Virus record (IMG/VR): IMGVR_UViG_3300026187_000019
Location: 1-55,224 of that record
Strand: one strand, 5' to 3'
Origin: a virus
Lineage: Duplodnaviria; Caudoviricetes
Length of the DNA stretch: 55,224 nucleotides
A program made the position numbers and the translations under genes. The notes under the pieces are model-generated. The model searched no databases. It saw only the letters and a program-made list of their open reading frames with translations, and had not been told where the DNA came from. Of this stretch, positions 1 through 55,224 are shown piece after piece (position 1 is the first letter of the stretch; the number at the start of each line of letters is the position of its first letter).

Positions 1-31
1 GATTGAGCAGAACAACGAAGTTGTCCATTTG

Positions 32-66
32 AGGCTGTAGGGTAATCCCCTACAGTCTACCTTTTC
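32..66 (+). terminator. Possible intrinsic terminator/hairpin after the 212-aa early gene
   Basis: AGGCTGTAGGG-TAATC-CCCTACAGTCT stem (one G-U pair) followed by ACCTTTTC; overlaps the stop of ORF 54481-55119 in the duplicated copy. Confidence 0.45.
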
Positions 67-69
67 ACT

Positions 70-85
70 AGTCCGATGTCGGACT
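70..85. promoter_or_regulatory. 16-bp palindrome AGTCCGA-TG-TCGGACT
   Basis: Perfect 7-bp inverted repeat; identical copies at 582, 2022, 2690 and 54204; lies just upstream of GGAG and ATG 107. Confidence 0.85.
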
Positions 86-106
86 TAACAATACGGAGTA
101 TTGAAT

Positions 107-274
107 ATGATTGATTTTATCATCGCCTTGTTTCTAATCGTCACCAGTGCAGTCATTGGACTGCTGTCTGTCATGTCACTAGCGGCTGGTGTGCCGGGTA
201 TGGGTTGGGTTGCACTTGGCTGTGTGGCTTGCTTTGTCGGTGGCTGGGTAATCATTGCAACGGAGTTGTCATAA
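107..274 (+). CDS. 55-aa two-TM membrane protein (not in ORF track)
   Basis: MIDFIIALFLIVTSAVIGLLSVMSLAAGVPGMGWVALGCVACFVGGWVIIATELS; GGAG RBS; TAATG coupling to the next gene. Confidence 0.75.
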   Translation: MIDFIIALFLIVTSAVIGLLSVMSLAAGVPGMGWVALGCVACFVGGWVIIATELS

Positions 275-516
275 TGGCTCGTAAATTCATCACCCCAATG
301 GGTCGCCACAAGCCTGTTCGTTCAAGCTGGGCGGCTATGGATACACAGGCTTTCAGCCGGTCATATGAGCCTGAGACACGGCCTGAGTTTCGGTGCTTTG
401 TGACTGGTCAAGCTGAAGCTATGCAAGCTGAGTATGAAGCGAAGCTGAAGCGTGAGGCACAAATGCAAGCCTTGCTTGACTTGAAGCAAAGGATGCTTGA
501 CAAAAATTTGCTTTAG
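274..516 (+). CDS. Hypothetical early protein (80 aa, MARKFITP...)
   Basis: Start reassigned to ATG 274 (TAATG overlap, GGAG upstream). Confidence 0.7.
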   Translation: MARKFITPMGRHKPVRSSWAAMDTQAFSRSYEPETRPEFRCFVTGQAEAMQAEYEAKLKREAQMQALLDLKQRMLDKNLL

Positions 517-526
517 TGTGAATAAC

Positions 527-562
527 GTAAATACACTTGAAACATAGTGAAAGTGTATTTAC
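527..562 (+). promoter_or_regulatory. Hairpin with GA..TAGTGA loop (copy A)
   Basis: Perfect 12-bp stem GTAAATACACTT/AAGTGTATTTAC, loop GAAACATAGTGA; TTGACA at 497-502 upstream. Confidence 0.75.
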
Positions 563-581
563 TTATATACACTACTAACTT

Positions 582-597
582 AGTCCGATGTCGGACT
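582..597. promoter_or_regulatory. 16-bp palindrome AGTCCGATGTCGGACT
   Basis: Exact copy; upstream of GGAG and ATG 617. Confidence 0.85.
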
Positions 598-616
598 TAA
601 CCAAACGGAGTTTGAT

Positions 617-889
617 ATGCAAAATCGTAAAGATGAATTGATACAAACATTGTGGGATTTGTTCAAGGATGTACACGGTGTACGTCCTCGTGGCATAGAC
701 TATGACCGTTGGTCAGTGACTGACCTTGAGTGGGAAGTAGCTATGCTACAGCGTCAGCTTGAGGATGACTTGCGCTGGGAACGTGAGCAGGAAGACCGTG
801 CAATCAATGCTTGCATGGACTGTGGTGCCAGTGACATAGCTACGGCTATGCGTTGGCTTGAGGATGCCTATGATATGGAGTGGGTGTAA
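617..889 (+). CDS. Hypothetical early protein (90 aa)
   Basis: GGAG RBS; DLFKDVHGVRPR motif seen in small phage proteins. Confidence 0.8.
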   Translation: MQNRKDELIQTLWDLFKDVHGVRPRGIDYDRWSVTDLEWEVAMLQRQLEDDLRWEREQEDRAINACMDCGASDIATAMRWLEDAYDMEWV

Positions 890-1053
890 TGTCAAAATTG
901 GATAAATTTTGTGATAAATACTATGCCATCACTGGTCTACCTTTCAGGTTTGACGGTGGCTTGTATCTTATGGACACGGATGATGATGGCAATGCTGTTA
1001 TTACAGACATTAGCCAAGCGGAGAATGATGATGCAAACCGGAAAGATTGTTAA
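889..1053 (+). CDS. Hypothetical protein (54 aa, MSKLDKFCDKYY...)
   Basis: TAATG coupling, GGAG RBS; translated by hand. Confidence 0.6.
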   Translation: MSKLDKFCDKYYAITGLPFRFDGGLYLMDTDDDGNAVITDISQAENDDANRKDC

Positions 1054-1237
1054 ACTACAAGGCAAGACCCGTCATGGCAAAAACCGTGTGAATGAACACG
1101 GCGAGTTTTGGCAGGTGCTTGACCTACCCAAGCGTATACCCGAATGGCCTACTGGTACATTCCGCTTGCAGTCTCTTGAGACTGGTGATATACGTTGGCT
1201 ATCGAATGACTTTACTGCAACCATTGTTACGGAGTAA
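1028..1237 (+). CDS. Hypothetical protein (MMQTGKIVKLQGKTRHGKNRV...)
   Basis: GGAG RBS before tandem ATGs at 1025/1028/1031; exact start uncertain. Confidence 0.7.
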   Translation: MMQTGKIVKLQGKTRHGKNRVNEHGEFWQVLDLPKRIPEWPTGTFRLQSLETGDIRWLSNDFTATIVTE

Positions 1238-1241
1238 CACT

Positions 1242-1943
1242 ATGACTTACCAAATCTTAGGCGTTGGCAATAATGCCAAGACAATCAAGGGTGATGGCTC
1301 AGAATATGTGACAGCTATCCGCTATCTCAAGCCGTTCAAGACCATGTTCAAGGGCAAGGTGCATAACCTATGCGCTATGGCTGAGACAGCCAAGTGCCAT
1401 GTCGGTTGCCTCAATACGGCAGGGCGTGGTGCTATGAACGCTGTGCAACGTGGTCGTGAACGCAAGACTATGTGGATGCTGTCTGACCCTATCGGGTTCT
1501 ATGATGCCTTGAACAAAGACATTGAGACATTCATTCGCCGCCAACTCAAGAACGGCATCACGCCGTGTATCCGTCTGGGTGGCACAGATGACAAGGGTGA
1601 CGCTATCAAGCTGGCACCAAATTATCCTGATGCACAGTTTTATGATTACACTAAAGTAATCAAACGTGCCTATCAAAAGTTGCCTGACAACTACCATATC
1701 ACCTTGTCATACAGCGAAGCCGATATGAAGTATGCTGATGCTGTGGTCATGGCTGTGGTCAAGACAGGTGTCAACATGGCTGTGGTATTCCGTGACAAGC
1801 TGCCCGATACATTCCGTGGCTTGCGTGTCATTGATGGCGACAAGGATGACTTGCGCTTTCTTGACCCGAAGGGTGTAGTCGTTGGCTTGATTGCCAAGGG
1901 CAAAGCTAAAAAAGATACGTCAGGCTTTGTGATTGACTGCTAA
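1242..1943 (+). CDS. Gene product 88-like, radical-SAM-related phage protein
   Basis: Cys cluster CAMAETAKCHVGCLNTAGRG plus IRLGGTDD, FYDYTK and DGDKDDLRFLD motifs; GGAG RBS before ATG 1242. Confidence 0.65.
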   Translation: MTYQILGVGNNAKTIKGDGSEYVTAIRYLKPFKTMFKGKVHNLCAMAETAKCHVGCLNTAGRGAMNAVQRGRERKTMWMLSDPIGFYDALNKDIETFIRRQLKNGITPCIRLGGTDDKGDAIKLAPNYPDAQFYDYTKVIKRAYQKLPDNYHITLSYSEADMKYADAVVMAVVKTGVNMAVVFRDKLPDTFRGLRVIDGDKDDLRFLDPKGVVVGLIAKGKAKKDTSGFVIDC

Positions 1944-1961
1944 ACCTCTTATGTATATCTT
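1933..1961 (+). promoter_or_regulatory. sigma70-like promoter
   Basis: TTGACT-N17-TATCTT. Confidence 0.6.
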
Positions 1962-1963
1962 AT

Positions 1964-2005
1964 GTAACATATATACTGATACTTTAGTGAAGTATATATT
2001 GTTAC
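1964..2005 (+). promoter_or_regulatory. Hairpin with GA..TAGTGA loop (copy B)
   Basis: Stem GTAACATATATACT/AGTATATATTGTTAC (one bulge), loop GATACTTTAGTGA. Confidence 0.75.
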
Positions 2006-2021
2006 TTAGATATACTAGACA

Positions 2022-2037
2022 AGTCCGATGTCGGACT
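2022..2037. promoter_or_regulatory. 16-bp palindrome AGTCCGATGTCGGACT
   Basis: Exact copy; GGAG 3 nt downstream, ATG 2051. Confidence 0.85.
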
Positions 2038-2050
2038 AACGGAGATTACA

Positions 2051-2191
2051 ATGCGTATCAGACCTATCAATCCTGTGGCGAAGGCAGTGGCACAGTCACG
2101 CCGCAGGACAGCCGTTGTGCCAGACAAAAAGAAATACAATCGCAAAAAGGAACAAGACCGTGAAAACAAAACACGAAAAGATAATGACTGA
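2051..2191 (+). CDS. 46-aa basic protein, weakly ArfA-like (not in ORF track)
   Basis: MRIRPINPVAKAVAQSRRRTAVVPDKKKYNRKKEQDRENKTRKDND; GGAG RBS. Confidence 0.7.
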   Translation: MRIRPINPVAKAVAQSRRRTAVVPDKKKYNRKKEQDRENKTRKDND

Positions 2192-2336
2192 GTTTGACCA
2201 CGATTGGAATGACTTGTCACTCTTTGAGAAATTGCCAGTGCGTAAGACTGCTAATCCAAAGCGTGACAACTGGAAGCGTGACCGCAAGGCGGCTCGTAAT
2301 GCAAAGCGTACAATGCAGGAGAAAAACTATGGGTAA
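2184..2336 (+). CDS. Hypothetical basic protein (50 aa)
   Basis: MTEFDHDWNDLSLFEKLPVRK...; overlaps both neighbours in operon style. Confidence 0.65.
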   Translation: MTEFDHDWNDLSLFEKLPVRKTANPKRDNWKRDRKAARNAKRTMQEKNYG

Positions 2337-2715
2337 GTATAGACTTTACTGGAACCTACACAAAAAGAAATGGTCACTACAAGACCGCAAGACTGGACGT
2401 GTTCAACAGCACGTTACTGCGTTCACAATGTATGACGCAAAGTTTGTTGTGCGTCCTGCCGGGCAAGCCAAGGTGCGGCGTGAGGGCAAGAAGAATGTTC
2501 ATGCCTTTGCCGTTGGCACTGCTGGCTTCCGTGATGGCATTGCTATTCGTGGTCATGGCAGACCAGTCACATACAACCCATACGAGAATGATACGTTTGT
2601 ATTCGCTGACACTGGTGAGTCAGTGACTGAGGTGCAAGCTATCTCTGTATACACTGAGAATGGTAAACCCAAAGTGTATGCAATCCCTAAGTCCGATGTC
2701 GGACTAACAAACTAA
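2329..2715 (+). CDS. Conserved phage hypothetical protein (YWNLHKKKWS...KNVHAF...YNPY)
   Basis: AGGAG RBS before ATG 2329; motif pattern common in phage proteins; function unknown. Confidence 0.75.
   Translation: MGKYRLYWNLHKKKWSLQDRKTGRVQQHVTAFTMYDAKFVVRPAGQAKVRREGKKNVHAFAVGTAGFRDGIAIRGHGRPVTYNPYENDTFVFADTGESVTEVQAISVYTENGKPKVYAIPKSDVGLTN
2690..2705. promoter_or_regulatory. 16-bp palindrome AGTCCGATGTCGGACT
   Basis: Exact copy inside the last codons of the upstream CDS, 33 nt before ATG 2739. Confidence 0.85.
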
Positions 2716-2738
2716 CCAACCATAAAGGAGATATTACT

Positions 2739-3152
2739 ATGACAACATTCAACATCGAGAACACAATCAAAGCTGGCACATACTTCAAGCGCACTACAGG
2801 TAAGAAGGGGCAAGTGCAGGGCAGTGCTGAACTGTCTGCCAAGTTCCGCAAGGTAGAAGCCTTGTATCTGGAGTTGCATGGCAAGCGTATGGGGCGTGAA
2901 GCCTTCTATGACATGTGCCTCAAGTATGCCCGTGCTACCAAGGCAGATGTTGGTGGGTACATACAGTACATGGCGCAAGACATTGCTGGCATCTTCCTCG
3001 ACAAGATGCACAAAGAGATTGGCAAAGAGGTGCGCCTAAACCGCCAACGCAAAGAGCAACGCAAGAATGGTATCACAATTCACTTGGGGACACATGACTT
3101 GAATACCATTGACTTAGCCAGAGCCAAGACTGGCAGAAAGGTAGCGGCATAA
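2739..3152 (+). CDS. Hypothetical basic protein (137 aa)
   Basis: AAGGAG RBS. Confidence 0.8.
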   Translation: MTTFNIENTIKAGTYFKRTTGKKGQVQGSAELSAKFRKVEALYLELHGKRMGREAFYDMCLKYARATKADVGGYIQYMAQDIAGIFLDKMHKEIGKEVRLNRQRKEQRKNGITIHLGTHDLNTIDLARAKTGRKVAA

Positions 3153-3325
3153 TGTATTGGGAAGTCGGTATGACAGTGGGTGTACAGGACACGGCAGTGA
3201 ATGTACACCCTGCCTCACTCACTCAGCATGGCTGGGAAAGTGCGGTTGAGTTCGCTATTGAGATGACACAAAGCCAATACCCTGACCATAGAGTAGAACT
3301 GGACTATGTTAAAGAGTATGACTGA
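3152..3325 (+). CDS. Hypothetical protein (57 aa, MYWEVGMTVG...)
   Basis: TAATG coupling; translated by hand. Confidence 0.65.
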   Translation: MYWEVGMTVGVQDTAVNVHPASLTQHGWESAVEFAIEMTQSQYPDHRVELDYVKEYD

Positions 3326-3449
3326 GTGTGTGACACCACTATGCGTATACAACCAGATGCCGTGGGACAGTGTGTTCATTGGCGGTTATCTGGTTGTATC
3401 TGTAGTCGGAATATGTTATATAATGTATAAACTGTTTAAGGATGAGTGA
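3318..3449 (+). CDS. 43-aa single-TM protein
   Basis: MTECVTPLCVYNQMPWDSVFIGGYLVVSVVGICYIMYKLFKDE; fills the operon gap. Confidence 0.5.
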   Translation: MTECVTPLCVYNQMPWDSVFIGGYLVVSVVGICYIMYKLFKDE

Positions 3450-3450
3450 C

Positions 3451-3618
3451 ATGAGCAAGACATGGGTAGTGTGGGTAGACTTGACCCACCGTATTGAAGT
3501 AGAAGCAGACAACATGGATGATGCTAGTGATATTGCTATTGAAACCATATGGGATGAAACCAACATGGTGAATTGCATTGTCACACCAGAACTGTTAGAG
3601 GAGAATGGGTATGCCTAA
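3451..3618 (+). CDS. 55-aa acidic protein with IEVEAD motif
   Basis: MSKTWVVWVDLTHRIEVEADNMDDASDIAIE...; AAGGA RBS. Confidence 0.65.
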   Translation: MSKTWVVWVDLTHRIEVEADNMDDASDIAIETIWDETNMVNCIVTPELLEENGYA

Positions 3619-5438: not shown

Positions 5439-6272
5439 ATGCCATTAGAATACATCCCTGAGAACCTCGACTTTGATGTAACCTTTGAGCCTACTCGTGT
5501 AGCTGACAAGAAGTATGTCATTGATGGCAACACTGGCGAACCTATCGCTATCGTGGGCAAGGACTTCACCTGTGCATCACATGGTGATTTCTTCCGTGAC
5601 GTTATGTCAACTGTGACAGACAACCTGACTGATGAGCAGACAGATGGTGCGTCTATTGTGTGGCGTGATGCTCACCGCAATGGCTGGGCTATGATGGACA
5701 TGACCTTGCCTAACATGAAGCATACCATCGTTACACCAAAGCATGAGACAGAGATAGCACAGCGTATCATTGCACTGCATGGTGTGGACGGTACATGTTC
5801 AAACACTGTGTTGTTTGGTGCTATCGACTTCTTTTGCACCAACGGTATGATTCGTGGTGAGCATGACAAGGTGCGCCGTAAGAACACTAGCGGCTTTAGC
5901 CTTGACAGATTCATTACACAGTTGGGCAAGTCAAATGATGACTTCACTAACTACCATCAGCAGATGCAACGCTGGGCTAACACCCCTGTGCATGTGAGCA
6001 ATGTCAAAGCTATGCTTGAATCGCTGCTCAAGTCTGACCGCACCGCCGACAAGATGCTTACCTTATACAATCAGGAAGCGGGTGTGCGTGGACAGAATGT
6101 GTGGGCATTGTATTCTGCATTCACCAACTACGCATCGTATGCTGATGAGCGTAATGGCTTCAAGCTGCGTAACACTGGTGGCGATACCAACGCTGTTAAC
6201 ATGTTCAAGCGTGAGCATGAAGTGTCACAGTGGATTGAAAGCAAGCAGTTCAAGGAGTTGATTGCAGCATGA
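5439..6272 (+). CDS. DUF932-family protein
   Basis: HGVDGTCS and FFCTNGM motifs and ~280-aa size typical of DUF932. Confidence 0.7.
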   Translation: MPLEYIPENLDFDVTFEPTRVADKKYVIDGNTGEPIAIVGKDFTCASHGDFFRDVMSTVTDNLTDEQTDGASIVWRDAHRNGWAMMDMTLPNMKHTIVTPKHETEIAQRIIALHGVDGTCSNTVLFGAIDFFCTNGMIRGEHDKVRRKNTSGFSLDRFITQLGKSNDDFTNYHQQMQRWANTPVHVSNVKAMLESLLKSDRTADKMLTLYNQEAGVRGQNVWALYSAFTNYASYADERNGFKLRNTGGDTNAVNMFKREHEVSQWIESKQFKELIAA

Positions 6273-7147
6273 AGACAGTAAAACATCTTGTGGATAAGTA
6301 TTACAATTCCAATGATTTCAAGATGTTACGAAGCAGAACTAAGAAAGACTATAAATACTTTCTTGGCATCATGCTAGATGATTTTGGCTCTGTGAAATTT
6401 TGTGAACTCACAAGTAAGCAAGCCAAACATGCATACGAAGGCTGGGTTGAGCGAGGCATTAGCCTTGCCAACCACGTCTGTACTGTGTCATCTATTCTGT
6501 TTCGTTACGCCATTGACATGGAGTATGCAACGGTCAATCCCTTTGCCAATGTCAGGCGCAAGACACCACCACAACGCAAAGTTGTGTGGACAGAGGATGA
6601 TGTGCGTCAATTCCTTGACACTGCCTATGGTGAGTTTCAGTGGCGCAGCATTGGCCTGATTGTACACATGGCATACGAGTGGTGCCAGCGTCTAGGTGAT
6701 ATGCGTCTGTTGACGTGGGACAACATTGACTTGGAAGAACACAAGCTATATCTTGAGCAGTCTAAGCGCAGGGCAGAGGTGACTTTGCCTATCGAAGATG
6801 ACTTGCTTGAGATGCTGACACAACAAGAGCAGGACTTTGGCTTTCAACAGTACGTTGTTCCCCGCACAACGCCCGTACAGGGCGAGTATCACCCGTACAG
6901 CATGGAACGTCTATCCAAAGCTGGAAGGGCTGTCATGCGTGAAGCTGGGCTGTCTGAGGAACTACGCCTGATGGACTTGCGGCGTACTGGCACAACACAA
7001 ATGGTAGAGGCAGGTGTACCTATGGGACAAATCATGTCGGTTACAGGACATAGTAATCCACAGTCAGTAAAACCGTACATGAAAAATACATACGCCAGTG
7101 CAAATAGTGCCTTGACAGCACGTAAGTCACATGGTAAAAGCACTTAA
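6269..7147 (+). CDS. Tyrosine integrase/recombinase
   Basis: Catalytic pattern QRLGD (R), QSKR (K), MDLRRT, TGHS (H), VKPY (Y). Confidence 0.9.
   Translation: MKTVKHLVDKYYNSNDFKMLRSRTKKDYKYFLGIMLDDFGSVKFCELTSKQAKHAYEGWVERGISLANHVCTVSSILFRYAIDMEYATVNPFANVRRKTPPQRKVVWTEDDVRQFLDTAYGEFQWRSIGLIVHMAYEWCQRLGDMRLLTWDNIDLEEHKLYLEQSKRRAEVTLPIEDDLLEMLTQQEQDFGFQQYVVPRTTPVQGEYHPYSMERLSKAGRAVMREAGLSEELRLMDLRRTGTTQMVEAGVPMGQIMSVTGHSNPQSVKPYMKNTYASANSALTARKSHGKST
7112..7140 (+). promoter_or_regulatory. Possible sigma70 promoter for replication genes
   Basis: TTGACA-N17-TAAAAG with TG extension, inside the integrase 3' end. Confidence 0.5.
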
Positions 7148-17238: not shown

Positions 17239-17461
17239 TGGATTAAGTAAGTACGATGCTCCGCTGCGTATTCAATACCAGTGGGGATATGAAGCATTTA
17301 AGCATGGTGGCAGGTTTAATAAGAAGGGCGTATATCTAGAGCATCGTCCTAATATGGACACCCATACTATGCAAGCACGTGAGTGGCAGCGTGGTTGGAA
17401 TGATGCCTACTATGAGCAGCTAAACAAGGTACAGACAAATGAAGCTAGAGCAAGAAGCTAA
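17228..17461 (+). CDS. Hypothetical protein with Rmf-like pattern
   Basis: YQWGYEAF...REWQRGWNDA resembles the ribosome modulation factor pattern (RGYQAG...W..GW..A). Confidence 0.6.
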   Translation: MRRNGLSKYDAPLRIQYQWGYEAFKHGGRFNKKGVYLEHRPNMDTHTMQAREWQRGWNDAYYEQLNKVQTNEARARS

Positions 17462-43280: not shown

Positions 43281-44849
43281 TTAGTATCCAAAGGTTGAGT
43301 CTGCGACTTGCATACCACCACCGGGTCTACCCATTGGGTCATAGTCAAATATACTAAACCTTGGTCTGGACATTATACCATACCTAAGAGCATCATACAA
43401 GTGGTCTTCACTCTTTGTGTCAATGTCTTCTGGGTTTTTCTTGTCCAACGGTATTGAGGGAAGTTGGGCCGTGAGGTTTGTGCAAGTATCAAAGAAAACA
43501 AGTCTAGGCTCCTCTGTAAATTCATCTATCTGTAGTCTACGGTGTATCTCGTTCTTACCAGCTACACGACTGCCCCTGCTTCTGTCTGACGGACGCCAGC
43601 GACATCCACGGCTAATCATTTGCTCCGCAAGAGAAGGGCCAGTATCACCACGCTTATGCCAAAGAGAACTGTCCAGAACACCGTACTTAATATTGCCATC
43701 TTCCGCTTCCAAATCCAGAATCATATCTGCCAAGTCTGTGGCAAGGACTTTAGAAACGTAGAGTTCTCTATATACCACAAGTTGCTCAGAAGGCGCAACG
43801 GCAAACCAAACAACACCACTGAAGCTACCGTAGCCATAATCGCAAGCCCGAAACTTAACCCAGTTGCTAGGAATCCTAAAAGGCTCAACAACATGAACCC
43901 GCCTATCAAACTCAGTAAAGGCTGCTCCCTCTTTAATATCCCAATCGCCTTCAAGAAGCTGCCTACGCTGCTGTTCTGGAAGCGATAGAAGCATGGCTTC
44001 GTAGTCACCTGCATTCGCAAGGTATGGGTTATCAGAAAGTCTTGCGGGTATAAATCTTCTTTTGAATAAAGATTTTCCAGCTTTACTATGTCCTGCTGGA
44101 TAGCGGAGAACTTCTCCTGTGTCTGTGTCTGTTGCATCGAAGGCTCTATTATATGGCGAAGGGTCAATGAACATTTTTTTGACCCAGTGATGACCTCTTC
44201 CGCCGGGGTTAGTCGTAGCCCTCATAAATATTGGCAAATCAGGTGCAGTAGACCGTAGACGAGAACGCATATAATTCCATGCGTATGGTGTGGACCATTG
44301 TGTTAACTCGTCAAAGCCTATCCAGCTAAAAGCTAGACCCTGATAGCGCAATACATCATCATCCCTGTCGAGATAAGACATCCACAATCTTGCACCAGAT
44401 GGCGCAGTCCACTGCATTTTTCTTTCTGACCACTTAATACCGGGCCAGATTTTTGGGTACAACTCCTGCGACTTAAATATAAGTTCCCGCAACTCTTCCG
44501 TTGTGTGTCGCAGTAGCAGCCCACTAAACTGTGGATGTCCCATGTAACGTAATGGGTCAGCAAGCATAGCGTAGCTTTTGCCACCACCTGCAGAACCACC
44601 ATACAATACTTCTCGTTCAGCCGCCGCTAGGAACTCTGTCTGTGGTCCTTCGTTTGGCTTGAACAAAACATTAGCGTGTTGTTCTATCTCGCTGCTGTCA
44701 TATTCAGGTGATACAGTTTCCTGTATCTCAACCTTCGGCTTTGGAGCCTGTTCTTTGGTTACTGATTTCTTCCGCTTTGGCGATTGCCGTTTTCGCATAT
44801 TCTGCCCACTTGCGGAGGCTTGCAGCTTGATTCTTACGTCTTCGCTCAT
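43281..44849 (-). CDS. terL: Terminase large subunit (start uncertain)
   Basis: YGGSAGGGKS Walker A, IGFDELT Walker B, TTNPGG and DHLYDALRY nuclease motifs. Confidence 0.95.
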   Translation of the reverse strand: MSEDVRIKLQASASGQNMRKRQSPKRKKSVTKEQAPKPKVEIQETVSPEYDSSEIEQHANVLFKPNEGPQTEFLAAAEREVLYGGSAGGGKSYAMLADPLRYMGHPQFSGLLLRHTTEELRELIFKSQELYPKIWPGIKWSERKMQWTAPSGARLWMSYLDRDDDVLRYQGLAFSWIGFDELTQWSTPYAWNYMRSRLRSTAPDLPIFMRATTNPGGRGHHWVKKMFIDPSPYNRAFDATDTDTGEVLRYPAGHSKAGKSLFKRRFIPARLSDNPYLANAGDYEAMLLSLPEQQRRQLLEGDWDIKEGAAFTEFDRRVHVVEPFRIPSNWVKFRACDYGYGSFSGVVWFAVAPSEQLVVYRELYVSKVLATDLADMILDLEAEDGNIKYGVLDSSLWHKRGDTGPSLAEQMISRGCRWRPSDRSRGSRVAGKNEIHRRLQIDEFTEEPRLVFFDTCTNLTAQLPSIPLDKKNPEDIDTKSEDHLYDALRYGIMSRPRFSIFDYDPMGRPGGGMQVADSTFGY

Positions 44850-53333: not shown

Positions 53334-53545
53334 TATTCATCTTTCTCTGTCCACCCCTCTGCTCGCATAGCATCTTCTACGTGCTTCAAAGTAAATGAAC
53401 GCCCGTAATGGGCTTCGACTGCACTACGCACATAGAATACATCACTATGAGGTATATGCAGTCGGTCTAATGAATTGTTACGAATAGCATCGTAGAATGC
53501 TTCAAGAACATTATCTGTGTATAGTTTTACAGATTTCTTTGCCAT
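53333..53545 (-). CDS. Hypothetical protein, first gene of the late arm
   Basis: MAKKSVKLY...HIPHSDVFYVR. Confidence 0.7.
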   Translation of the reverse strand: MAKKSVKLYTDNVLEAFYDAIRNNSLDRLHIPHSDVFYVRSAVEAHYGRSFTLKHVEDAMRAEGWTEKDE

Positions 53546-53595
53546 TGTCAAGAACTTTCTTTGTATAGCACGAATAATCTTTGCACGTAGGGATA

Positions 53596-53730
53596 CACTA
53601 TAAGTGTTATCACTTAGAGTGCATTAACAAAGAAAATTTAGTAAGGACTAACTTATGTACATTTAAGTGATATAGTTAATAAGTTTTTTAAGAATTATTA
53701 TATAAACATTTAAGTGTATCACTTTAAGTG
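53596..53730. repeat. Cluster of five CA(C/T)T..AGTG boxes
   Basis: CACTATAAGTG 53596, CACTTAGAGTG 53611, ACATTTAAGTG 53659 and 53706, CACTTTAAGTG 53720, in very AT-rich DNA. Confidence 0.75.
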
Positions 53731-53746
53731 AGTTTAGTTATACATA

Positions 53747-53775
53747 ATTATATCAGATTTTTTATAGGCTGTCAA
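53747..53775 (-). promoter_or_regulatory. Perfect-consensus sigma70 promoter of the late arm
   Basis: Minus strand TTGACA-N17-TATAAT with TG extension. Confidence 0.85.
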
Positions 53776-54044
53776 CCCCCCTTTTGCAAAATAGTTCAAA
53801 TGGTCCATACACCCCCTTACAGTTGCCTATTATTTAGGCAGTTGCACAATGCTTGTGCATATAGGTAGTGACAGTTGCTCTTGTGGTTAACAATCAATTT
53901 ACCTGATCTGTGTATTTCTGTGTATACATATCTACGCTACCCCCCGGTGGCTCCTGCCTGCCCCCTCATCTAAGGCGTGTATGCCTCTGCATTATGCGCA
54001 ACCAGCCGCCTCATTAGGGAGCCATCTGAGTAAGCCCTTGATAT

Positions 54045-54335
54045 TGCATAGAATATGCAGTAAGTAATCCGGCAATTCAGTTGTAAACAACTGTTATGGT
54101 ATCAGTTGCCATACGAAGTATGACTGTAAAAGTCCAACAATACAGATTTGTAACGAAGTTACAAGGTTGATGCATCTAATCTTTTCACCAAAGGTGAACC
54201 ACAAGTCCGATGTCGGACTACACCCCCTATCACTGAAGGTGATAGTCATACCAGCTACCACAATCTGCCAAGCCTCGCTATGTGTCACGAGTTTAGCGCA
54301 CGAGTTTCGCTATCGAAGATAGCTGCAACCGTAGG
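54045..54335 (+). other. Array of short triloop hairpins
   Basis: Stems at 54045, 54110, 54148, 54184, 54227, 54309 and 54329 with loops GAA, GAA, GAA, AAA, GAA, GAA, GTA. Confidence 0.75.
54204..54219. promoter_or_regulatory. 16-bp palindrome AGTCCGATGTCGGACT
   Basis: Exact copy embedded in the hairpin array. Confidence 0.85.
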
Positions 54336-54410
54336 CGAAACGGCTTGGGCAGAGGATCACACACAAGGCTTCAACCCCAAACCTTAACTATCTTCTTACG
54401 GTTTTAAGGT

Positions 54411-54444
54411 ATATAGCCCCTTGAACGTAGTGAAAGGGTTATAT
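54411..54444 (+). promoter_or_regulatory. Hairpin with GA..TAGTGA loop (copy C)
   Basis: Stem ATATAGCCCCTT/AAGGGTTATAT (bulge, G-T pair), loop GAACGTAGTGA; upstream of ATG 54481. Confidence 0.7.
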
Positions 54445-54480
54445 CCCTATAAAACCTAAAGATAGATAAGAGGAACCGAA

Positions 54481-55119
54481 ATGCAAAACTCAATCAAAAA
54501 ATCTTTCGCCATTCAGCTTGCTGAAGCACCAAACACAAATGAAGCCAAAGGCTTGGTATTGTCCCGTTGGGACAAGTCAATCACCAAAGGTGATGTCAAT
54601 CGCTTCAAGAAACTCTGTGAGTTTGCTGGTTTCTGGTTCACCCTTGGTGAAATCCTTGTCCGGCTTCGGACTGAATCCGGCGGTAGCCGGACTGATTCAG
54701 CTTTGCTGAAGAATGCCAACCTTCATACCGTTGCAAAGCAACGCCGTAGTGAAGCCATGAAGTTCTTTGAGAACTTCCATGTAATCGTTGAAAACGATTT
54801 GCTCGGCAAGAAATCTACGATTTGCCACATGAAGGATCTGCTGAAAGCAGTGGACAAAATCGTCAACCCAAAGGTTGAAGATGAGCCAGTCCTTGAAGCT
54901 ACTATCGTAGCTGATGAGCCAGAGGTTCTGGCTATCGAAGATAAGTCCAGCGAAGCTGTACCACAGTCTAAAAAGACTGCTGAAGATTTGGCTCTTGAGG
55001 TTCTACTGCAAGTAGAACTTAATGAGGTCAGCCTTGCTGACTTCAAGATTGCCATGGCAAATGCCATTGGCATGATTGAGCAGAACAACGAAGTTGTCCC
55101 ATTTGAGGCTGTAGGGTAA
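54481..55119 (+). CDS. First early gene, hypothetical (212 aa)
   Basis: GAGGA RBS; long ORF with biased codon usage. Confidence 0.85.
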   Translation: MQNSIKKSFAIQLAEAPNTNEAKGLVLSRWDKSITKGDVNRFKKLCEFAGFWFTLGEILVRLRTESGGSRTDSALLKNANLHTVAKQRRSEAMKFFENFHVIVENDLLGKKSTICHMKDLLKAVDKIVNPKVEDEPVLEATIVADEPEVLAIEDKSSEAVPQSKKTAEDLALEVLLQVELNEVSLADFKIAMANAIGMIEQNNEVVPFEAVG

Positions 55120-55224
55120 TCCCCTACAGTCTACCTTTTCACTAGTCCGATGTCGGACTTAACAATACGGAGTATTGAATATGATTGATTTTATCATCGC
55201 CTTGTTTCTAATCGTCACCAGTGC
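55074..55224. repeat. Terminal overlap of circular assembly (copy 2)
   Basis: Duplicate of 1-150. Confidence 0.95.

Follow-up and report, generated by a model that had tools for sequence, protein, structure and literature searches.

The window analyzed here, the whole 55,224-nt stretch of IMG/VR record IMGVR_UViG_3300026187_000019, is a circular assembly with overlapping ends. It belongs to an HMO-2011-type phage, an assignment made in a first-pass annotation and confirmed here. The features on which the analysis centers lie on both sides of the assembly junction and are as follows.

53336 to 53545, minus strand: m72, a 70-aa protein, first gene of the divergent operon; used as the anchor for collecting relatives
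53747 to 53775, minus strand: sigma-70-type consensus promoter (12/12 matches, TG before the second hexamer) driving the divergent operon
54204 to 54219, plus strand: palindrome copy 1 (leader copy); the DNA around it, which separates the divergent operons, is non-coding and conserved
54407 to 54448, plus strand: third A element (long AT-rich hairpin), loop containing GAACGTAGTGA; before the first early gene, with no palindrome after it
54481 to 55119, plus strand: first early gene, 212 aa, no family; varies or is replaced among relatives
54657 to 54672, listed on the plus strand (minus in the mismatch scan): degenerate copy TGTCCGGCTTCGGACT, within the first early gene
32 to 58, plus strand: terminator-like hairpin, GC-rich and trailed by a T-rich stretch, downstream of the first early gene; relatives show covariation in the stem
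70 to 85 (= 55144 to 55159), plus strand: palindrome copy 2, 12 nt past the terminator-like hairpin and 21 nt before ATG 107
89 to 103, plus strand: small hairpin CAATAC-GGA-GTATTG with the Shine-Dalgarno sequence GGAG in its loop; a second one at 602 to 614
274 to 516, plus strand: g2, an 80-aa protein, second gene after palindrome copy 2; candidate trans-acting partner
514 to 574, plus strand: A element with conserved loop GAAACATAGTGA, preceding palindrome copy 3
582 to 597, plus strand: palindrome copy 3, 7 nt past the long hairpin and 19 nt before ATG 617
1953 to 2015, plus strand: second A element, loop GATACTTTAGTGA, preceding palindrome copy 4
2022 to 2037, plus strand: palindrome copy 4, directly past the long hairpin and 13 nt before ATG 2051
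2690 to 2705, plus strand: palindrome copy 5, in the last 9 codons of ORF 2329 to 2715 and 33 nt before ATG 2739

An exact scan of the whole window found AGTCCGATGTCGGACT on the plus strand at positions 70, 582, 2022, 2690, 54204, and 55144. Since positions 1 to 150 repeat positions 55075 to 55224 (with a 1-nt indel), the copy at 55144 duplicates the one at 70, leaving the five distinct perfect copies that the first-pass annotation had reported. All five fall within 54204 to 2705 and carry the TG center on one and the same strand. The remaining ∼51 kb, previously described as free of copies, indeed held no match at up to three mismatches, and the only match that this relaxed scan added was the minus-strand one at 54657. 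The palindrome is the most repeated 12-mer of the genome; 100 dinucleotide-preserving shuffles gave a mean of 0.14 matches, none reached 13, and 0 of 100 equaled the observed count. The looser core GTCC-N6-GGAC had two extra matches in the window, one at 54658 in the first early gene, whose homologue in relatives contains true palindrome copies, and one at 17346, which is at chance level.

Four copies had been described as lying 13 to 33 nt before an early ATG, and the gaps of 21, 19, 13, and 33 nt (copies at 70, 582, 2022, and 2690, respectively) agree with this. The copy noted inside coding sequence (KSDVGLTN) exists as well but is the one at 2690 rather than a separate fifth copy. The leader copy lies 261 nt upstream of the ATG at 54481, with no gene directly behind it, and is flanked by two small covarying hairpins (54184 to 54198 and 54228 to 54244); the equivalent place in relatives holds a copy or the genome's own variant. 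The conserved non-coding region beside the copies contains CAGTTG boxes and GAA or AAA mini-hairpins, and the small hairpin presenting the Shine-Dalgarno sequence has covarying versions in relatives. No recognizable sigma-70 promoter overlapping or adjoining any copy emerged from a promoter scan, and no palindrome was followed by a T-run. Searching the whole window against Rfam gave 0 matches at the gathering threshold and, at E values up to 5, only chance-level microRNA-like ones.

Palindrome variants among HMO-2011-type phages

The palindrome is a conserved cis-element of HMO-2011-type podophages and no local oddity; we found no published description of it in the literature. Related early regions totaling 406,708 nt contained 124 matches (108 unique) to GTCC-N6-GGAC, compared with ∼6 matches expected by chance. 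Among the matches listed in two IMG/VR scans, AGTCCG-N4-CGGACT was present at two or more copies in at least 28 sequences, counted over 127 sequences (126 loci from IMG/VR and the window). GTCCR-N4-YGGAC occurred five times in HMO-2011, five times in CRP-1, and six times in CRP-345 and was absent from CRP-2 and CRP-738, with 0 matches to the reversed control in all five genomes. All five HMO-2011 sites lie in the same region as those of the window, and one of the six CRP-345 sites lies elsewhere.

The invariance and fixed orientation that had been remarked upon hold inside the window genome but not among relatives, which show flips, other centers, and other arms. HMO-2011 carries AGTCCG-ACAG-CGGACT four times together with one exact flip (CTGT), and exact center flips occur in ordinary contexts at HMO-2011 position 60 and at positions 1103 and 2189 of locus L072. 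Relatives other than HMO-2011 have different centers or different arms, and at least 10 different centers were seen. Relatives with an m72 that is 87 to 100% identical carry other palindromes (GTCACTCAGTGAC, GTAGCACCTGCTAC, GTCTGAAGTTCAGAC, and others) in three to eight copies each, and these alternative palindromes of close relatives occupy the same kinds of places; at least 12 variants were found among contigs with an almost identical neighboring gene. We typed 46 loci with an early region of at least 1,900 nt, namely, the window and 45 of the 80 m72-anchored loci (m72 87 to 100% identical), and in 32 of the 46 a palindrome was repeated at least three times. The types seen were GTCCG, GTCCA, GTCCC, GTCTG, GTCAC, GTAGC, GTAAT, GTAAC, and GTGGT. 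Within one genome, the palindrome arms are identical across all copies. The outer four bases are fixed, and the center varies. The palindromes are uniform within a genome and different between early-region modules, which indicates a sequence-specific reader.

Of 90 unique contexts, 72 had a Shine-Dalgarno sequence and a start codon within the next 70 nt, the most frequent gap being 21 to 22 nt across unrelated spacers; for the other variants, both followed within 45 nt in 31 of 55. Upstream stop codons frequently overlap the first palindrome arm, and in four variants the palindrome stands directly in front of the g2 gene. The flanking bases (−1/+1) were identical as A/A in 39 contexts and as T/T in 36 and were complementary in 13 of 90, and in other variants A-runs flank the palindrome on both sides. 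Such non-symmetric flanks are a strand-specific feature. Since all copies share one transcription direction, transcript-level and DNA-level functions cannot be told apart on that basis. In several clades, copies also lie inside conserved open reading frames, namely, the first early gene and a small g8-like ORF (in which the palindrome is read as KSDVGL or VSNVGQ), so that the function does not depend on an adjacent ribosome-binding site.

Proposed reader and rival explanations

Folded as a hairpin, the palindrome has a 6-bp stem and a 4-nt loop and forms in every context, at about −8 kcal/mol alone (short L030 context) and at −9 to −23 kcal/mol in folded contexts. Dyad symmetry was present in all 14 variants listed. 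In 12 of these 14, the first base pair that is unable to form in a hairpin was still complementary (binomial P ≈ 3 × 10−6 against 25%), and counted by arm class, such inward symmetry beyond hairpin use held in 10 of 11. Non-Watson-Crick variants of the fifth pair were T.C, G.A, A.C, and T.T and never G.T, and copies in L065 and L072 with only four to five pairs occupy normal contexts. The A hairpins, the terminator hairpin, and the leader mini-hairpins keep their pairing while their sequence changes, and the palindrome shows no such drift. Judged from the sequences, this symmetry pattern fits duplex DNA. The palindrome nevertheless sits among covarying hairpins, making the region rich in RNA-type or single-strand-type structure; on the gene strand, early-region hairpins have 69 G.T versus 44 A.C mismatches, a weak excess confounded by base composition.

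These observations suggest, at about even probability, that the palindromes are operator-like duplex-DNA sites bound by a dimeric regulator that the phage encodes and that controls its early operon. The reader would be a protein, would bind DNA rather than RNA, and would act as a repressor. A genome-specific multicopy dyad site would thereby punctuate the rightward early operon of HMO-2011-type phages, with one copy in the leader and the others in short gaps before early cistrons or, occasionally, inside cistrons. One subunit of the dimer would bind each half-site, (A)GTCC(G), with the palindrome center serving as the spacer, and the gene for the regulator would lie within the same early module as the sites. 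Host RNA polymerase moving along the operon would be slowed or stopped at sites that are occupied, which could shut off early expression, allow autoregulation, or confer immunity to phages of the same kind. The first-pass annotation had offered a binding site for a phage or host protein, an mRNA hairpin, or a recombination site between cassettes, and the protein-binding option is the best supported of these: the arms are invariant beside covarying hairpins, the variants are genome specific, and the dyad is extended. It is unlikely that a host protein reads the sites, because phages with a nearly identical conserved arm have entirely different palindromes and because the motif was not enriched in 301 genomes of a candidate host order, where it occurred in 29, never in more than two copies, and more rarely than the reversed control. 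A host regulon is unlikely.

A candidate for the reader is the 80-aa protein at 274 to 516, g2. A profile search placed the g2 family in 31 of 32 palindrome-bearing loci and in 0 of 14 loci without a palindrome; here, 15 of the 31 matched loci contributed rows to the profile, and two of the loci classed as without a palindrome hold low-copy AT-rich ones. Independent blastp clustering recovered g2 in 30 of the 32, and tblastn recovered it in 23 of 23 GTCC-type loci, among which other early genes come and go. Identity between g2 proteins was 63% within a palindrome variant and 24% between variants. In the structure model, confidence is low for the N-terminal half and high for a long C-terminal helix (44 to 76). 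We did not detect g2 in any of the five loci of the AT-richer group or in CRP-1 or CRP-345, all with the same GTCC palindrome, and L311 is a palindrome-bearing locus without it; the association may reflect linkage inside one early-module type. Pfam and PHROGs searches found no DNA-binding family in the 30 window proteins, among which no CI-like repressor was recognizable, as noted in the first pass, and no DNA-binding family was found in 16 g2 relatives.

The m72 protein, 87 to 100% identical across loci with different palindromes, was rejected as the reader. The small, Arg/Lys-rich g7 and g8 proteins are conserved even where the genome carries a very dissimilar palindrome and therefore do not set the specificity.

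A somewhat unlikely alternative is an early-mRNA hairpin heading each cistron, which would shield processed 5′ ends and serve to insulate or adjust the ribosome-binding site. Alternatively, an RNA-binding protein or a nuclease would recognize the hairpin sequence specifically and thereby process or translationally control the polycistronic early transcript. The long A hairpins upstream would be the processing sites. Folding in every context, the regular presence of a Shine-Dalgarno sequence and start codon downstream (72 of 90), and the stop codons overlapping the first arm speak for such a hairpin, as does a second hairpin that covaries and carries the Shine-Dalgarno sequence in its loop. Identical, non-complementary flanks would stop helix extension, the compensatory changes in neighboring elements are typical of RNA, and the G.T excess points weakly the same way. 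Lambda nut sites lie just upstream of terminators, and other variants place a palindrome copy in just that position. However, a purely structural element should drift like its neighbors, and no differences are seen among the copies of one genome. The stem is constant at its base and the loop is variable and sometimes flipped, the opposite of the pattern in the RNA-protein hairpin pairs MS2 and boxB. Complementarity extending into unpairable positions, the missing G.U among fifth-pair variants, and the poorly paired copies of L065 and L072 likewise argue against an RNA hairpin, as do copies inside ORFs, a leader copy with no gene behind it, and the conservation of g7 and g8 beside a different palindrome.

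Recombination sites delimiting exchangeable early-gene cassettes, acting either through homology as in T4-type PeSLs or through the phage tyrosine integrase in an integron-like manner, appear improbable. Gene content between copies does differ among relatives, an integrase gene is present (6269 to 7147), and some junctions fall exactly on copies (L001, L051, and L079 at 582; L051 and L068 at 2690), with one DNA-run contig joining 2038 to 2689, palindrome to palindrome. Among 17 relatives, 176 of 1,212 HSP ends lay within 25 nt of a copy, compared to 69 expected, but this signal all but disappeared with the proper control, there being 2.8 HSP ends per copy versus 2.0 per motif-less gene start in the window. 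The suggestion that gene-content breakpoints mark the motif as a cassette boundary was thus not specifically supported. Moreover, many cassette differences lack bounding copies (e.g., L030), and CRP-2 and CRP-738 have integrases but not the motif. Tyrosine recombinase core sites are also longer than arms of 5 to 7 bp with a 1- to 4-bp center. A role in some other DNA process, such as replication priming, genome-entry control, or packaging signaled by cruciforms or single-strand hairpins, is very improbable. The symmetry is perfect almost to the center, and the copies lie at one end of the gene map beside the conserved non-coding region with its boxes and mini-hairpins. Against this, they are spread unclustered, one per intergenic gap, over 3.6 kb at a regular spacing to start codons, palindromes of 13 to 16 bp are short for cruciform extrusion, and the circular assembly of the window does not fix the true genome ends.

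Building on the operator-like reading, we tentatively consider that the palindromes and the co-varying small early protein could form a hypervariable specificity module with many mutually blind regulatory types. Each phage would then shut down, or be shut down by, its own kind only, providing immunity or superinfection control in a group without a recognizable repressor. Such a module may use a new DNA-binding fold in which a coiled-coil stalk carries a flexible N-terminal half. HMO-2011-type phages have been described as a dominant, widely distributed marine virus group, many members of which carry an integrase, with no other lysogeny-related gene reported for the group in that description (PMC9038755). 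A multicopy, genome-specific cis-element of the early operon is a first concrete handle on early transcription control in these phages and may reveal how they distinguish self from close relatives. The 80-aa candidate and the palindrome form a small, directly testable pair, and early-region modules in viromes can be typed simply by the sequence of their palindrome variant. Should the mRNA explanation be true, the palindromes would represent naturally occurring hairpin insulators, one before each cistron.

Comparison with known regulatory and cassette elements

T4-type PeSLs are described as a consensus sigma-70 promoter combined with a G/C-rich terminator stem-loop (PMC2839356; PMC4122927). 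Measured against this description, the palindromes are similar in being small repeated stem-loop motifs between non-essential early genes, in a plastic part of the genome, and in having some indel junctions between relatives on the motif. They differ in lacking an adjoining consensus promoter and a T-run, and breakpoints at palindromes are hardly enriched over those at other gene boundaries. In T7 RNase III sites and the lambda N-nut boxB, hairpins separate early cistrons or follow early promoters, and repeated hairpins among early cistrons are found here as well. RNase III needs a duplex of about 20 bp, however, for which the adjacent A hairpins (∼25 pairs) would qualify and the 6-bp palindrome stem would not. 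BoxB is recognized through its conserved loop by an arginine-rich peptide, and N-nut specificity differs between related phages; in contrast, the loop of the palindrome is its variable part, as seen from its many different centers.

In L5-type phages, dispersed near-identical sites, mostly in short intergenic gaps, are described as being used by one phage protein to stop transcription; these stoperators are asymmetric, are bound by a monomer, occur across the phage genome, and are said to co-evolve with the immunity repressor into distinct immunity types (PMC9283540; PMC6550527). As in that description, near-identical short sites lie here in gaps of transcribed DNA (five in the window, and 72 of 90 before a cistron). 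L5 genomes have about two to three dozen stoperators each. Unlike stoperators as described, the sites studied here are dyad symmetric, number three to eight, and do not extend beyond the early operon; a search of 30 window proteins revealed no homologous repressor. Palindromic operators of dimeric regulators include those of the 434/P22 type, the phiC31 conserved inverted repeats, and the RK2 KorA/KorB sites. Unlike these, the palindromes do not overlap a recognizable promoter and keep a regular distance to ribosome-binding sites, and g2 matches no HTH or RHH family. Like them, they have a dyad symmetry of 13 to 16 bp, with fixed outer half-sites at fixed spacing around a variable center, and autoregulation is plausible, since a copy precedes the candidate gene. 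As with the operators of dimeric regulators, several identical copies stand before different operons of one mobile genome.

Palindrome copies in the early region

The window represents an HMO-2011-type podophage whose early region shares 77% nucleotide identity with Puniceispirillum phage HMO-2011. Early and replication genes lie on the + strand from 54481 to ∼18 kb and structural genes on the - strand, matching an annotated relative. Positions 1-150 repeat 55075-55224 except for one C (gtccattt versus gtcccattt, a 1-nt indel) near the first early gene's 3' end, within its sequence; the window ends thus overlap, which points to a circular assembly. Scanning the window, we found the 16-bp palindrome AGTCCGATGTCGGACT without mismatch on the + strand at 70, 582, 2022, 2690, 54204 and 55144, the last being the copy at 70 seen twice because of this repeat. 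With up to three mismatches allowed, the sole further match was at 54657. The exact positions agree with those of the first-pass annotation, which had reported no others. None of 100 dinucleotide-preserving shuffles came near the observed count, and no 12-mers are repeated more often in the genome than those from the palindrome.

Palindrome copies, A hairpins (long, AT-rich, with a conserved 11-13 nt loop GAWAC(T)TTAGTGA) and predicted promoter
70, + strand: palindrome copy, ends 21 nt before ATG 107
582, + strand: palindrome copy, ends 19 nt before ATG 617
2022, + strand: palindrome copy, ends 13 nt before ATG 2051
2690, + strand: palindrome copy, ends 33 nt before ATG 2739; overlaps the final codons of ORF 2329-2715
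54204, + strand: palindrome copy in non-coding DNA, 261 nt upstream of the first early gene
514-574: A hairpin
1953-2015: A hairpin
54407-54448: A hairpin
53775-53747, - strand: sigma-70-type promoter, consensus 12/12, TG preceding the second hexamer; predicted to drive the divergent operon, whose first gene encodes the 70-aa protein m72

The measured gaps of 21, 19, 13 and 33 nt bear out the claim that four copies precede early-gene ATGs by 13-33 nt. One copy had also been described as lying inside coding sequence; its overlap with ORF 2329-2715 is real, but it is the same copy as that at 2690, and the fifth (54204) is non-coding. The - strand promoter (53747-53775) is conserved in seven aligned relatives, and a promoter scan of the window found no comparable consensus promoter for the early operon on the + strand.

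The first early gene holds another 16-bp palindrome, AGCTACTATCGTAGCT, at 54897-54912, and in several relatives its homologue has a true palindrome copy at approximately the same relative position. The early proteins encoded at 1242-1943 and 2329-2715 belong to families named for mycobacteriophage L5 genes, GP88 (PF17338, E 8e-43) and gp82 (PF25735, E 2e-29). Contigs from two marine RNA-seq libraries (runs X23 and X24) match small parts of window 1-3500, and some come from relatives in which AGTCCAAGGTTGGACT or AGTCCAACATTGGACT stands where the window has its 582 and 2690 copies; as assembled contigs, they are no evidence of transcription or of RNA ends.

Conservation and genome-specific variants

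The exact 16-mer was found in 31 IMG/VR stretches and a looser pattern in at least 117, single matches carrying little weight because chance predicts them at this database size. AGTCCG-N4-CGGACT was present in two to seven copies in 28 of 127 sequences (126 loci among the matches listed, plus the window). In HMO-2011 there are four copies of AGTCCG-ACAG-CGGACT and one of its exact reverse complement; GTCCAA-NN-TTGGAC occurs five times in CRP-1, six times in CRP-345 and not at all in CRP-2 or CRP-738; a reversed control pattern scored zero in all five of these phages. In related early regions totalling 406,708 nt we counted 124 occurrences of the core GTCC-N6-GGAC, with 108 unique contexts, where about six were expected; the degenerate scan of HMO-2011-type genomes proposed in the first-pass annotation did reveal comparable palindromes in relatives. 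In 88 of these contexts the fifth pair was G-C; 13 had A-T there and 7 a non-canonical pair. The centres, read in gene orientation, were ATGT (48), ACAG (27), CTGA (4), ATGA (3), CTGT (2), ATAG (2) and four others once each, including TCAT. The palindrome is a real, conserved cis-element.

For a comparison anchored on m72, a relative of which is encoded by at least 501 IMG/VR contigs, we took the best 80 (87-100% identical) and typed the 46 loci with an early region of at least 1900 nt (45 of these 80, plus the window). A palindrome was repeated at least three times in 32 of the 46, and was of the GTCC type in only 23 of these 32.

Non-GTCC variants of the palindrome
GTCACTCAGTGAC: 7 copies
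TGTAGCACCTGCTACA: 8 copies
GTCCCAASTTGGGAC: 5 copies
GTCTGAASTTCAGAC: 6-7 copies
GTAATCNNNGATTAC: 6 copies
GTAACGCCGTTAC: 5 copies
GTGGTAAATACCAC: 5 copies

These variants are placed alike, with one copy in the leader (the non-coding DNA between the divergent operons), one next to a terminator and the others 14-25 nt ahead of start codons. Fourteen of the 46 typed loci had no comparable repeat, two of them with low-copy AT-rich palindromes. The palindrome thus keeps one sequence throughout a genome, and early-region modules differ from one another in that sequence.

The palindrome had also been suggested to delimit exchangeable gene cassettes. Homology breakpoints did lie near copies more often than a uniform expectation allows (176 of 1212, versus 69), but in the window they were not enriched over motif-less gene starts (2.8 versus 2.0 per site), and recombination is thus probably a side effect at most. 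A role on host chromosomes fared no better: the palindrome was not enriched in 301 genomes of a candidate host order, being at or below control, and among the matches listed, genome contigs had single copies only, in diverse taxa, as chance predicts.

Duplex DNA, mRNA and the neighbouring hairpins

A Shine-Dalgarno sequence with a start codon lies within 70 nt downstream of the palindrome in 72 of 90 unique contexts, most commonly after 21-22 nt; upstream lies a long AT-rich hairpin, a terminator-like hairpin or just the preceding stop codon. Copies also occur within ORFs conserved across clades, where a small ORF resembling that of the basic early protein g8 is translated there as KSDVGL or VSNVGQ, and the first early gene contains a copy in several lineages.

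We consider it about an even call whether the palindrome is an operator on duplex DNA. Its outer bases are constant and its centre is free, exact flips are present in normal contexts, and no G.T is found among the non-canonical fifth-pair variants. The first pair that would be impossible in a hairpin is still complementary in 12 of 14 variants (p ∼3e-6), a count that leaves out the variable-centre type of locus L339, which would score as a failure. Of the options raised at the outset, a protein-binding site thus gains from the per-genome uniformity, free centre and symmetry, while the start-codon spacing and identical flanks favor RNA.

Action as an mRNA hairpin, which we regard as rather unlikely, would account for that regular spacing, for flanks that are identical in 75 of 90 contexts and complementary in 13 of 90, and for the A-runs on either side of the non-GTCC variants. 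It would also fit surroundings rich in covarying hairpins, including a Shine-Dalgarno sequence located in a hairpin loop. A strand test gave G.T 69 versus A.C 44 (p 0.02), a difference confounded by base skew and chance hairpins. Against a hairpin stand the symmetry at the hairpin-impossible pair and the behavior of the neighboring hairpins and leader mini-hairpins (53826-54480), which keep their pairing while their sequence changes; the palindrome does not change in this way. These neighbors show what purely structural selection yields, and such selection therefore fails to explain a palindrome so uniform and yet so diverse. A reader, that is, a trans-acting factor recognizing the palindrome, would produce this pattern if encoded in the same early module.

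The A hairpins themselves have stems that vary between copies and relatives (ACACTT/AAGTGT, ATATACT/AGTATAT, GTGGGG/CCCCAC, CCCCTT/AAGGGG), their covariation being judged by direct stem tally. They had no Rfam match and may be processing sites, attenuators or unusual promoters. Two early genes have their Shine-Dalgarno GGAG in the 3-nt loop of a small hairpin, at 89-103 (CAATAC-GGA-GTATTG) and 602-614 (CAAAC-GGA-GTTTG); both stems covary in relatives.

The conserved non-coding leader 53826-54480 contains four CAGTTGC boxes and CAGTTGTAAACAACTG, mini-hairpins at 54108, 54151, 54184 and 54228 with GAA or AAA triloops and covarying stems, and a conserved block (54280-54350) with the covarying hairpin GCTATC-GAAG-GATAGC. 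Possible identities for it are an origin, an attP-like region and a structured leader RNA. Five loose CAYTT..AAGTG palindromes occupy the divergent-operon leader (53595-53731), with arms that match the inner A-hairpin stem; at this place relatives show CAGTT..AACTG or TACACTTAGGTGTA. Across the window, neither the CAYTT..AAGTG pattern nor the CAGTTGC boxes nor a second palindrome, CACTTAAGTG, exceeded chance.

A candidate partner protein

No repressor-like family was detected among 30 window proteins scanned, which upholds the initial impression that the phage has no recognizable CI-like repressor. From its distribution, the best candidate reader is g2, the 80-aa protein encoded at 274-516. 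A profile search detected its family in 31 of the 32 loci that bear a palindrome and in none of the other 14, with 15 of the 31 positive loci having contributed to the search profile; independent blastp clustering placed it in 30 of the 32. No other early gene is retained throughout the 23 GTCC-type loci, the sequence class of g2 tracks the palindrome variant, and in four variants the palindrome lies directly ahead of its gene. In the predicted model the N-terminal half is of low confidence and residues 44-76 form a confident helix; 16 members gave no Pfam match below E 0.017, and no PDB sequence match was found. The protein was undetectable in five AT-richer loci, CRP-1 and CRP-345, all of which carry GTCC palindromes, and linkage within a single module type could explain the association.

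Other proteins were rejected as readers. The N-terminus of m72 does not vary among motif-bearing phages and differs in motif-less CRP-2, but proteins 87-100% identical to m72 adjoin wholly different palindromes or lack one beside them. Structural searches with the m72 model (mean pLDDT 70) yielded nothing significant (best Foldseek E 2.7, best VIA Z 4.2), no PDB sequence match was found below E 0.67, and Atlas gave unnamed viral clusters only. The L5 gp82-like protein g9 is missing from many motif-bearing loci, and the very basic g7 (46 aa) and g8 (50 aa, PKRDNWKRDRK), encoded within 2051-2336, were rejected as specificity determinants. In the AT-richer group, CRP-1 and CRP-345, codons 9-14 of a g8-like ORF hold a copy of the palindrome; such ORFs lie at L010 2488 and at CRP-1 2136-2324, the latter unannotated. 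The protein at 44728 had no family match; its gene-order counterpart in CRP-738, adjoining the large terminase gene, is annotated as a putative small terminase subunit.

The main genomic papers on HMO-2011-type phages contained no promoter, palindrome or repressor terms, and none of the papers searched had any of four motif strings; an earlier mention elsewhere may exist. The palindrome thus appears to be previously undescribed, and it comes with a testable candidate partner protein. As a multi-copy phage operator or intercistronic signal it would be of a known kind; what is unusual here is its genome-specific diversity.
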